DNA from: Bacteroidota bacterium
Lineage (GTDB): Bacteria; Bacteroidota; Bacteroidia; Flavobacteriales_F; PHOS-HE28
Assembly: GCA_014584605.1 (NCBI GenBank)
Contig: JACTMO010000053.1
Span: forward strand, 25,792-89,791
Direction of reading: 5' to 3'
Length of the DNA: 64,000 nucleotides
Made by a program: the position numbers and the translations under genes
In this document: in pieces, positions 21,985 to 52,714 of the stretch
Position numbering within the stretch: position 1 is the first letter of the stretch
Layout: the number at the start of each line of letters is the position of its first letter
Notes under the pieces: generated by a model
The model's database searches: none
Told to the model about the DNA's origin: nothing
The model's input: the letters and a program-made list of their open reading frames with translations, nothing else

Positions 21985-22065
21985 AAGAGGGGCGTTGGCG
22001 GAATGAAGCCCCCTCCTGTCCGGCAGAACCCTCCGCCGGACCTGGCAAGGAGGGGCCGGGATGGG
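21985..22065. repeat. Solitary REP-like arm of the same family as the 50.8-51.9 kb array
   Basis: CGGAATGAAGCCCCCTCCTGTCCGGCAGAACCCTCCGCCGGACCTGGCAAGGAGGGG, nearly identical to 50949-51005. Confidence 0.85.
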
Positions 22066-49962: not shown

Positions 49963-50523
49963 ATGAAGCGCGCGATCCTCTTGTTCTCGGTCCTGACCCT
50001 GGCGGCCTGCCAGAAGGAAGAAACCGCTCCGACCCCGACGGGTGGGAGCGACCCGAACGCATGGACCCCGCCGACCACCAGCTATTGGAAGATCAACGGG
50101 GTGGCCAACGGCAGCAGCATGGACGCGGTGAGCGTGAACATCACCGGGAACAACATGGGCTTGGCCAAGCCCTTTCCGGACCTTGGCTTCGGCTACTGCC
50201 AGCTGCGTGTTTTCTCGGACAACAACAACCTCAATATCCGGGACAGCGTACCGGAAGGTGGCTACATCACCCTGCCCATCACCATCAACAGCACCTCCAA
50301 CAACGACTCCATCCGCGTGGAACTGGACGTTGAGGATAATAACAGCGGTACCCAGGGCAACTACTTCTACCGGGCCACCGGCGGCACGGTGTACATCTCG
50401 AAGTCGGGCGGCAAGCTGCGCTATACCAGCAACGGCACCCTGGCCATGGAAGGGGTGAAATACCCAGACATGCAGAGCTACATCTACACCTGCCAGCTTT
50501 CCTTCAGCCAGGTTCAGCCGTAG
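49963..50523 (+). CDS. Hypothetical lipoprotein
   Basis: [16 protein letters not shown] lipobox followed by QKEE; beta-rich body. Confidence 0.8.
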
Positions 50524-50789
50524 GTCCCGGTCCGCACCGTGTGGTGCGAGGGGGCATTTGCCCAATGCAGCGAATGCTGGGCATCCGGTGGCGTTCATGG
50601 GACTCGACGAGAGTGCGCGGGGCACCATGGGGAACATTGCGGCACCACTCGGCCTTGTGCTCCCTTTTGCAAATTCGAAGGTCCTGGCCAGGACTCCTGT
50701 GGCCGGGCCGCTGTATTTTCCGCCCTGAACGGTCCTCCCATGCGTTTTCTGGTCGTTGTTCTGCTGTTCTGCTGCGTGCAAAGAACCGA

Positions 50790-51110
50790 TCAAGTCCCCT
50801 CATGTCCGGCGGAGCACTCCGCCGGACCCGGCAAGGAGGGGTACGGGGTGGTTACCGCTGATGGGGAACAAGATCCCTGAGTTGAAACCTCCCCCGGCCC
50901 CTCCTTGTGCGGCGCGTGGAGGGTTCCACGCGCAGGAGGGGAGTTGAACGGAATGAAGCCCCCTCCTGTCCGGCGGAACGCTTCGCCGGAAATGGCAAGG
51001 AGGGATACGGGGTGGTTTCCGTTGATGGGGAACAAGATCCCTGAGTTGAAATCTCCCCCGGCCCCTCCTTGTGCGGCGCGTGGAGGGTTCCACGCGCAGG
51101 AGGGGAGTTG
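50790..51110. repeat. REP-like array, left block: two 164-bp units, each an inverted pair of 58-bp arms
   Basis: Arms L1 50796-50853, R1 50886-50943, L2 50960-51017, R2 51050-51107; core CCCCTCCT..hairpin..AGGAGGGG. Confidence 0.9.
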
Positions 51111-51130
51111 GATTGCGTCAAGGGTCCTCG

Positions 51131-51514
51131 CTAAGTGCGATCGCTGGACGGCTCTTCCGCGAGTGTCGTGCGGATCATTTCCAGCACACCCTCCGGATCC
51201 TTCAGTAATTCCCGGTTCTCGATCCGAAGGACCCGGATCCCCAATGCACGCAGGAGCTCATCCCGGGCGCCGTCGTTCGCGTCGCCGAGCACCTCAAAGT
51301 GCTCTGCGCCATCCAGTTCGATCGCCAGTCGCTTGGCCGGACAATAGAAGTCCAGGACGATCGAGCTGCCGATGCTGTGCTGCCGACGGAACTTGAATCC
51401 ATCGAGTTTTCGTCCGCGGATCAACGACCACAACGCATCCTCCGCGGCCGTGGACGCCGCCCGAAGCCCGCGGCGAATTTCGAGGAGTTCCGGCCTGTTG
51501 TGGATACTGGTCAT
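51131..51514 (-). CDS. DUF559 (Vsr-like) endonuclease domain protein
   Basis: RRGLRAASTAAEDALWSLIRGRKLDGFKFRRQHSIG..LDFYCPAKRLAIELDGAEH...DGARDELLRALGIRVLRIEN is the canonical DUF559 signature. Confidence 0.92.
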   Translation of the reverse strand: MTSIHNRPELLEIRRGLRAASTAAEDALWSLIRGRKLDGFKFRRQHSIGSSIVLDFYCPAKRLAIELDGAEHFEVLGDANDGARDELLRALGIRVLRIENRELLKDPEGVLEMIRTTLAEEPSSDRT

Positions 51515-51546
51515 CCCGGTCGTGTTGTGGTGGATGAAGGTATGGG

Positions 51547-51866
51547 CTGAGTTGAAACCTCCCCCAGCCCCTCCTTGTGCGGCGCGTGGAGTATTCCACG
51601 CGCAGGAGGGGAGTTCCGCGATCAAGCCCCCTCCTGTCCGGCGGAACACTCCGCCGGACCCGGCAAGGAGGGGTACGGGGTGGTTACCGTTGTTGGGGAA
51701 CAAGATCCTGAGTTGAAACCTCCCCCGACCCCTCCTTGTTCGGCGTGTGGAGGGTTCCACACGCAGGAGGGGAGTTGGATCGGTTGTGCGGCGCGTGGAG
51801 TATTCCACGCGCAGGAGGGGAGTTGAACGGAATGAAGTCCCCTCCTGTCCGGCGGAACGCTCCGCA
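51547..51866. repeat. REP-like array, right block
   Basis: Arms R3 51556-51613, L3 51628-51685, R4 51717-51774, partial R5 51784-51822, partial L4 51839-51865. Confidence 0.9.
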
Positions 51867-51982
51867 TTCGGGTCTTCTTGCACTGGAGCTCCTGCCGGTC
51901 GGGTCGTGCGCCACGAACGACAACAAGGAAAAAATTCACACAGAACGCCGATCATTCAAGGAACGTGGATACTTTTCCACCA

Positions 51983-52714
51983 GTGAACCCCACGGTATTC
52001 ATTGTAGAGGATGAGCCGCAGGCCCGCGAGCTGATCCGCGCGTTGTTGACCAAGCGGCATCCACGCGTCAAGCTGGTGGGCGAGGCGGGCGATGTGCATA
52101 GCGCCGCGGACGCGATCCGTGCCGCAGTGCCGCAGGTGCTCTTCCTGGACGTGGACCTGGGCGGGCTGGACGGGTTCGACCTCCTGCGTCGTATCGTGCC
52201 GGTGGAGCCGTTGGTGATCTTCACCACCGGCAAGGCTGAACACGCGGTCCAGGCCTTCGATGTGCGGGCGGTCGACTTTCTGGTGAAGCCCATCAGCGGT
52301 CCGCGCTTCGACGAGGCCGTGCTGCGCGCCCTGGAGCAGTTGGAACGGCGGGCACCCCAGGTCCCCCCGGGCATGGTGGTGAGCGACCGCCGCATTGCAC
52401 TGCCCGACGCGCGGGGGCTGACGCTGCTTCCGCTGGACGAACTGCTGTACTGCGCCAGCGACAACAACTACACCCTGGTGCACCGGCGCGGCGAGGCGCG
52501 GCCACTGGTGGTGAGCCGAGGCATTGTGGCGTTCGACGACGCGCTGCACGACCAGGGCTTCGTGCGCATCCACCAACGGTACCTGGTGAACCGCAAGCAC
52601 ATCCAGCGCTACATCAAGGGCGAGGGCGGCGAGGTGATCATGAGCGATGGCGCCAACCTGCCTGTGAGCCGCCGCCAGAAGGCCGACCTGATGGAGGCCC
52701 TGGAGCGGCTCTGA
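51983..52714 (+). CDS. LytTR family response regulator (no adjacent kinase)
   Basis: IVEDEPQARE, LFLDVDL, DFLVKP, SDNNYT, FVRIHQRYLVN and LPVSRR motifs; GTG start at 51983. Confidence 0.9.
   Translation: MNPTVFIVEDEPQARELIRALLTKRHPRVKLVGEAGDVHSAADAIRAAVPQVLFLDVDLGGLDGFDLLRRIVPVEPLVIFTTGKAEHAVQAFDVRAVDFLVKPISGPRFDEAVLRALEQLERRAPQVPPGMVVSDRRIALPDARGLTLLPLDELLYCASDNNYTLVHRRGEARPLVVSRGIVAFDDALHDQGFVRIHQRYLVNRKHIQRYIKGEGGEVIMSDGANLPVSRRQKADLMEALERL

Follow-up and report, generated by a model that had tools for sequence, protein, structure and literature searches.

The window analysed here is a stretch of 64,000 nucleotides from the genome of a Bacteroidota bacterium (66% GC). At positions 51131..51514 it carries, on the minus strand, a gene for a 127-aa DUF559 protein with a predicted Vsr/EDxHD nuclease fold, whose closest named homologue is labelled Flavobacteriales. 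A preliminary description of this DNA had proposed the gene without giving its strand, and a Pfam match to DUF559 (PF04480; E 2.4e-29, 101.8 bits against a curated cut-off of 20.6) bears the assignment out.

Seven full and two partial repeat arms surround the gene. Arm L1 (50796..50853, plus strand) consists of a pyrimidine stem, an inner hairpin, a purine stem, a TAC loop and the mirror strand GGGGTGGTT, with 7/8 Watson-Crick pairs and 9/9 triads. A 32-nt spacer (50854..50885) separates it from arm R1 (50886..50941, minus strand; loop CCG, mirror strand GGGGAGGTT, 8/8 pairs, 9/9 triads). The second doublet is formed by L2 (50960..51017, plus; 7/8 pairs, 8/9 triads), its spacer (51018..51049) and R2 (51050..51105, minus; 8/8 pairs, 8/9 triads), which lies directly 3' of the DUF559 gene. 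Directly 5' of the gene, and in the same orientation as R2, lies R3 (51556..51611, minus; 8/8 pairs, 9/9 triads), followed by L3 (51628..51685, plus; 8/8 pairs, 9/9 triads), a spacer shorter by one base (51686..51716) and R4 (51717..51772, minus; 8/8 pairs, 9/9 triads). The array ends in the truncated R5' (51784..51822, minus), which lacks purine stem and mirror strand, and L4' (51839..51865, plus), of which the pyrimidine stem and a portion of the inner hairpin remain.

Mapping of the arm coordinates confirmed the proposed order, L1-R1-L2-R2-gene-R3-L3-R4-R5'-L4', and the proposal that L and R arms have a common scaffold on opposite strands. The metrics of the preliminary description hold in part: its 58-bp arm length fits the L arms while the R arms measure 56 bp, its 164-bp doublet period occurs once (L1R1 to L2R2, 90% identity) with the third doublet 668 bp further on, and its conserved spacer GGGGAACAAGATCCCTGAGTTG is found in the three local doublets (minus one C in the third) but differs in dispersed copies. 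The gene does stand, as had been claimed, in the place of a link, an L arm and a spacer between R2 and R3, and it is therefore bracketed by direct copies of R. A tentative promoter-like element, TACCTTCA, was read from the sequence at 51535..51542 on the minus strand and resembles the Bacteroidota -7 box; a counterpart, TATCTTCA, lies upstream of the DUF559 copies of two related genomes, G105 and G122.

To the left of the array, the first nine or so codons of a TPR/histidine-kinase gene remain on the plus strand (50740..50766); by blastn, 50713-50766 matches the start of this gene in the sister genome G098 with 78% identity across 54 nt (E 1e-6). In G098 the kinase is intact (786 aa) at the same site, between the same lipoprotein and LytTR genes and with no arms; here only its first codons are kept, and the array occupies the place of the rest. 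G122 and G020 show decay of the kinase as well, with no arms at the site, so that this deletion need not have been caused by the element. The LytTR response regulator gene at 51986-52714 has lost its adjacent sensor kinase.

The array is neither a chance arrangement nor, piece by piece, an assembly artefact. The L1-R1 fold has a z score of -6.8, none of 200 shuffles folding equally well, and a strict scan for hairpin plus mirror strand found 33 arms in the genome and none in the reversed or the complemented genome. Contigs from three sequencing runs (X1, X3 and X5, belonging to three studies, one of them possibly the source sample) match 51081-51576, comprising the gene and both junctions, and further pieces of the array with no differences; no piece spans the whole array, so this independent confirmation extends to the parts and not to the copy order. 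One contig of a further run, X10, joins R1 to R5' (50923>51803) and skips the gene. Since 35 letters are common to both sides of this joint and gene-bearing contigs also occur in X10, the joint is possibly an assembly-graph artefact and was not counted as an empty allele.

Architecture and motif class of the arms

The full arms follow one plan, in which a pyrimidine stem CCCCTCCT is followed by a 28-30-nt loop with a hairpin of its own, a purine stem AGGAGGGG and, beyond a loop of 3 nt, a mirror copy of that stem. Under the antiparallel triad rules G.G-C, A.A-T and T.A-T, 8-9 of 9 triads are satisfied in 7/7 full arms. Among 112 distinct hairpins from 35 loci of the genus, a mirror strand was present on exactly one side in 80, on both sides in none and on neither in 32. 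The mirror-strand base that faces the A was T or A in 74 of 75 cases, in keeping with the purine-triplex rule. Each of the three local doublets pairs an L arm (loop TAC) with an R arm (loop CCG or TCG), giving inverted pairs of two second-loop types.

These properties are those of the BoxC/PIT/TMECO repeats. According to the accessible text of a 2015 study, such repeats have been recognised from the 1990s onwards, are found in large numbers in hundreds of genomes, mark unstable loci and occur in E. coli as pairs in inverted configuration with TTA and CCG second loops (PMC4666352). The likeness comprises the C-rich stem, the G-rich stem, the 3-nt second loop and the mirror G-rich strand; the inverted pairing of two loop types (TTA+CCG in E. 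coli, TAC+CCG/CTG/TCG here); and a mostly intergenic location linked to deletions and variable loci. The arms differ in their first loop, 28-30 nt with its own hairpin against 3-6 nt, and in their CCCCTCCT/AGGAGGGG stems, and the exact TMECO consensus (9-nt stems, first loop 3-6 nt) had no match in the locus or the genome. Judged by sequence, the arms are thus a long-loop variant of the described BoxC/PIT/TMECO intrastrand-triplex motif, and triplex folding is predicted for them. For TMECO itself, the same accessible text reports a block to polymerase in vitro by the element alone, no triplex in duplex DNA or in in vivo footprints, and that purine-motif triplexes do not form in RNA (PMC4666352).

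The arms had been described as REP-like, a label that is not retained here, as they are hairpins with a mirror strand of the BoxC/PIT/TMECO kind and not canonical REPs. REPs are defined by a GT[AG]G guide at the foot of the hairpin (PMC6006769); no such tetranucleotide stands 0-2 nt 5' of the hairpin in the arms, which are preceded by AAG(C/T) or AACT. A known ncRNA family was also considered and rejected, an Rfam scan of 50500-52000 having returned only weak hairpin matches and no family at gathering score.

The DUF559 protein and its linkage to the arms

By sequence, the protein matches 3HRL (E 9e-16). A predicted model (mean pLDDT 81) matches in fold both 3HRL and the homing endonuclease I-Bth0305I (3R3P; E 4e-4, TM 0.56 by query length). 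Ranks 4-9 of the same fold search are mitoribosomal proteins, which we take to be RAP domains. Eight residues (E25, Q45, D55, E66, D68, G69, H72 and D81), all of them present here, do not vary across the full set of 84 aligned homologues. The pattern formed by E25, D55, H72 and D81 is like the EDxHD motif common to Vsr and I-Bth0305I, as given in the accessible text of PMC3239194. Modelled fold and conserved E, D, H and D thus place the protein with the Vsr/EDxHD-type nucleases, with nuclease activity as a prediction. In the accessible parts of two surveys (PMC1189080, PMC3424549), DUF559/YcjD is listed as Vsr-related with no function given. Against the G105 and G122 copies, dN/dS is 0.09-0.12 (121 codons, with synonymous sites near saturation), which at the codon level shows purifying selection on the gene. 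A look-up of transcript data for the locus listed no RNA run that contains it. In three alphaproteobacterial loci (L009, L011, L019) the DUF559 domain is C-terminal in a 640-aa open frame that, judged by eye, is RecQ-like with an HRDC-like end. Matches to DUF559 were found in 39 of 72,556 plasmid records and 3 of 50,697 phage records, all below 60% identity.

An enrichment of arms beside other DUF559 genes, anticipated in the preliminary description, was found across phyla and among relatives. An arm lay within 250 nt of the gene in 21 of 34 GTDB loci (all those returned by the search, from several phyla) and in 35 of 50 related-genome loci (24 of 30 tool-picked and 11 of 20 hand-picked, some picked after the arms had been seen), and arms stood on both sides in 11 and 25 of these loci, respectively. 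The strict detector, which recovers six of the seven full focal arms, found no arm at 13 of 34 and 15 of 50 loci, about one third. Arm density at these DUF559 loci was 3.0/kb close to the gene, falling to 0.13-0.14/kb at distances above 700 nt. Many bacterial lineages share this combination of gene and repeat.

Arms were present within 400 nt at none of 30 Y1_Tnp loci, Y1_Tnp being the one alternative enzyme family compared, and at none of seven neighbour-gene control loci. With this result, and with the unrelated flanks of the genome's single Y1_Tnp match, RAYT/IS200 was set aside as the cognate enzyme. Two outcomes had been named beforehand as counting against the pairing, a lack of enrichment at DUF559 genes and a tracking of the arms with RAYT; since the arms are enriched at DUF559 and not at Y1/RAYT genes, both tests favour the earlier reading. 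Within the genus, Y1_Tnp (RAYT-like) genes are flanked by repeats of their own, of the GACCCCGAAGGGGTC or GTAGGGACGCGAT type (L119, L121, L125, L126 and L131, among eight loci displayed).

Presence of the gene also goes with presence of the arms. Of 131 genomes in the genus, 13 have a close stand-alone homologue, and 10 of these carry at least two long-loop arms, as against 6 of the other 118, in a table whose arm pattern and E-value cut-off were chosen after seeing the data. The covariation of arm and protein that had been suggested was also found, protein identity and arm-loop similarity giving a Mantel r of 0.41 (p 0.0005) over 18 of 19 loci, one having been dropped for no detected arm, and of 0.36 (p 0.009) over 13 loci, one per genome; as kin are not independent, the 2x2 table and the Mantel p values overstate the association. 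The two closest homologues, in G105 (78%) and G122 (74%), are found in the same R>gene>R cassette within different gene neighbourhoods, that is, at non-orthologous sites, and they group with the focal protein at 100/98 in a tree of 39 rows. The whole cassette aligns to that of G122 at 72% over 1012 columns. Between this genome (G000) and G122, dS is about 1.6 for the DUF559 gene and 0.19 for part of lepA (178 codons), a difference that fits separate acquisition, although lepA is codon-biased.

Gene and arms also occur apart. The five nearest hosts (LepA 97-98%) all contain the arm family, with a close stand-alone gene only in G122, and the stand-alone gene is missing from 6 of 16 arm-bearing genomes (G020, G139, G005, G123, G068 and G129). 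No DUF559 match was found in G020 (22 arms, 99% complete, 50 contigs), and only an in-frame and a weak match in G139 (40 arms, 3 contigs); because the PF04480 search also misses the control E. coli, despite the annotation of K-12 ycjD as DUF559, these absences mean 'not found'. Arms may thus be maintained, and perhaps increase in number, where the gene is missing; alternatively, the gene was recently lost or is unassembled. Tandem arm arrays without the gene are present in G139, G122 and G024.

A perfect TMECO lies some 170 nt downstream of ycjD, the E. coli K-12 member of the family; by our own arithmetic, with 23 copies per genome, the chance of a TMECO within 200 nt of ycjD is about 0.002. 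The gene is present in 3378 of 5426 E. coli genomes, at a median of one place per genome, and lies between fabI and sapF in 25 of 25 listed records holding it, a single fixed place at which it is not visibly jumping. According to the accessible text of PMC12817139, where repeats are unmentioned, ycjD stands where the eef efflux operon has been lost at least twice. In the fabI-sapF interval (L067, L234, L235), a segment with ycjD and the TMECO was observed in place of a TetR and RND efflux locus, and the efflux-bearing allele contains, by eye only, a degenerate G-rich arm-like stretch near the breakpoint.

Taken together, we consider it very probable that DUF559 and the arms are a real cognate pair. 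The repeat and the protein family have each been described; the pairing is new with respect to the literature found, in which no link of DUF559 or ycjD to BoxC, triplex or palindromic repeats was met, subscription papers and the supplement of PMC4666352 lying outside the scope of that search.

Dispersed, junction-associated and in-frame arms

The genome-wide copies suggested by the preliminary description exist at ten other loci. A profile search gave 26 arm matches, eight at the focal locus and 18 elsewhere, against none in the reversed genome; the ten dispersed loci, all gene-less, comprise eight doublets (seven of eight in the L-R orientation) and two singles. A single L-type arm lies within the window at 22006..22060 (contig C65:47797-47851, plus strand), at the junction of about 4.3 kb missing relative to G098, and G122 supports the longer state. 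Comparison of five sites (C16, C32, C71, window 22 kb and the focal site) with sister species yielded no clean empty site or target-site duplication, the intergenic DNA being too diverged, and the lepA neighbourhoods of G123, G020, G139 and G122 are rearranged and allowed no empty-site mapping.

Dispersed arms on four contigs (C47, C16, C77 and C32; L205, L203, L207 and L202) lie just 3' of genes for secreted proteins, whose C-terminal domain we take to be T9SS-like. Some of these genes form a family of paralogues whose 3' ends are highly conserved over 450 bp; the multicopy stretch had been considered as a larger mobile element and was rejected as such, being the coding 3' end of the paralogues.

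Two DUF559 lineages are present in the genome, each with its own arms: the stand-alone gene with long loops, and a domain in frame in LeuRS with short loops. In the 39-row tree, long-loop stand-alone proteins and in-frame proteins fall on the two sides of a 97/97 branch. The LeuRS gene (C29, L001) contains a whole DUF559 domain together with short-loop arms in frame. Short-loop arms were also observed in frame in three other genes, whose names were judged from their sequences: IleRS-like (three places), cation-ATPase-like and urocanate-hydratase-like (C7:5992-7622, C62:1895-1937 and C64:15577). Such in-frame arms yield peptides of the SPSPSERGPGGEG type.

A candidate mechanism and its alternatives

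The nearest experimentally tested analogue is the GIY-YIG nuclease Ssn with its repeat SRM, followed by RAYT/REP. The preliminary description knew of no mechanistic account of such a system and did not consider that a small nuclease outside the HUH class, with hairpin repeats of its own on either side, is already known from experiment. As reported in the accessible text of PMC11893778, from which DUF559 and Vsr are absent, SsnA is a 94-aa GIY-YIG nuclease that lowers transformation and cleaves ssDNA close to the hairpin repeat that flanks its gene, and 71% of ssn homologues have an SRM nearby, 42% on both sides. Both systems comprise a small single-domain hydrolytic nuclease gene (predicted here) flanked by an oriented, dispersed hairpin repeat of its own, with a non-palindromic tail that orients the repeat and with comparable flanking rates (62-70% and 32-50% for DUF559). 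They differ in the enzyme, GIY-YIG there, a domain not found here, and Vsr/EDxHD-fold here; in the repeat, which is unrelated and has a triplex-type mirror strand only here; and in that nuclease activity is shown for Ssn, while DUF559 is known here from its sequence and a model.

With REP/REPIN/BIME elements and their RAYTs, the system shares the placement of one enzyme gene among inverted doublets, further doublets without the gene at other sites, and tandem arrays. The flanked gene, however, has no HUH/Y1 domain and could not transfer strands by the HUH route, the arms lack the guide of REPs, and the Y1_Tnp genes of the genus have other repeats. I-Bth0305I and Vsr have the same nuclease fold and a matching acidic/His residue pattern (PMC3239194, accessible text), and homing spreads genes through cut-and-repair; in contrast to I-Bth0305I, the DUF559 protein is an intergenically encoded 127-aa single domain, with no N-terminal NUMOD DNA-binding region and no intron or intein, and unlike Vsr its gene has no cognate cytosine methyltransferase beside it. 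Its proposed target would be a repeat instead of a unique site or a T:G mismatch. Although it works like a REPtron or an Ssn element, the DUF559-arm system belongs to neither.

Judging from the analogous Ssn/SRM and RAYT/REP systems, the DUF559 protein probably binds or cuts the arms specifically. We propose a model in which the enzyme would recognise the folded single-stranded arm and nick beside it, and the host, in repairing these nicks by recombination, would produce arm copies at further sites, transfer the gene from one array of arms to another and cause deletions. Unlike an HUH transposase, a hydrolytic Vsr-type active site is unable to rejoin DNA, and the host would therefore have to supply the joining step. 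In support of the model we count the cassettes and arms at deletion junctions in this genome and the position of ycjD in place of eef in E. coli. The complete scheme, with nicking of single-stranded arms by the nuclease and the spread of arms and gene by host recombination, we regard as evenly balanced, and the same holds for its step from arm cutting to spread; for that step and for a single-stranded or triplex substrate we rely on inference.

Clearly less probable, yet to be taken seriously, is a domesticated role resembling that of Ssn, in which the enzyme would cut at arms as a tool of the host, restricting or tuning incoming ssDNA or creating variability at arm-marked loci, while the arms multiply by slippage and ordinary recombination for which the enzyme is dispensable. 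The precedent of SsnA and its similar flanking rates (PMC11893778, accessible text), the purifying selection on DUF559, the fixed site of ycjD, the gene-less tandem arrays of G139, G122 and G024 and the several dispersed arms 3' of variable secreted-protein genes would all suit such a role, whereas the patchy distribution (13 of 131 genomes), the non-orthologous sites and the high dS between close hosts look more selfish, and the in-frame copies inside tRNA synthetases bring no obvious host benefit. It is unlikely that the DUF559 genes are passengers, riding by recombination between arms which they do not recognise and which another agent spreads, be it an unknown transposase or replication errors at triplex-prone DNA. 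The arm-rich genomes without a close gene, the direct R repeats around the gene, the X10 contig that joins R1 to R5', and the polymerase block by TMECO alone and its marking of unstable loci (PMC4666352, accessible text) agree with this reading, but a linkage specific to one gene family across several phyla and missing from all 30 Y1_Tnp loci, the covariation of arm and protein, and catalytic residues conserved in 84 of 84 copies argue against it.

Least probable is a system acting on RNA, with the arms as structured RNA in transcripts flanking the gene and the protein binding or cutting RNA. Vsr-fold RAP domains do bind or cut RNA. The mitoribosomal proteins in the fold search and the stable fold of the doublet are in line with such a system, as is the reported action of a Vsr-like FASTKD4 on RNA (PMC11879112). 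However, arms occur in both orientations around DUF559 homologues, the best structural matches are DNA nucleases, and the mirror strand is conserved by a purine-triplex rule whose triplexes do not form in RNA (PMC4666352, accessible text).

If the enzyme recognises and nicks the arms, as is likely, DUF559, a very common family of unknown function, would be the missing partner that spreads the long-unexplained BoxC/triplex-motif repeats; in the accessible text of the 2015 TMECO study, no enzyme is named as a partner of TMECO and no mobility genes are reported in its neighbourhood (PMC4666352). A single small protein and synthetic oligonucleotides would make both old questions testable in E. coli K-12, where the family has its member ycjD. 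The link could yield a structure-specific ssDNA or triplex nuclease, and it would account for the proline/glycine-rich in-frame inserts and for the occurrence of DUF559 domains within tRNA synthetases and further core proteins. More speculatively, and in our view doubtful as a whole, DUF559 might be a nuclease that reads intramolecular triplexes, the autonomous partner of BoxC/PIT/TMECO and a third class of repeat-spreading enzyme after HUH RAYT and GIY-YIG Ssn, one that needs no transposase to move, takes the place of adjacent genes and enters essential proteins in frame.

Other small repeats were observed in the course of the analysis. A second family, GACCTGTCCCGCC..GCGGGA with CACATG runs (L221, L223, L224, L149; C49:4777, C73:5173), occupies in sister genomes the same intergenic sites as the arms. 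An MITE-like element of about 150 bp with inverted ends of the GTGTGGTGGCCCCTAAGTT type follows the genome's only Y1_Tnp match (L003, C43) and recurs on C30 near 99830-99990.
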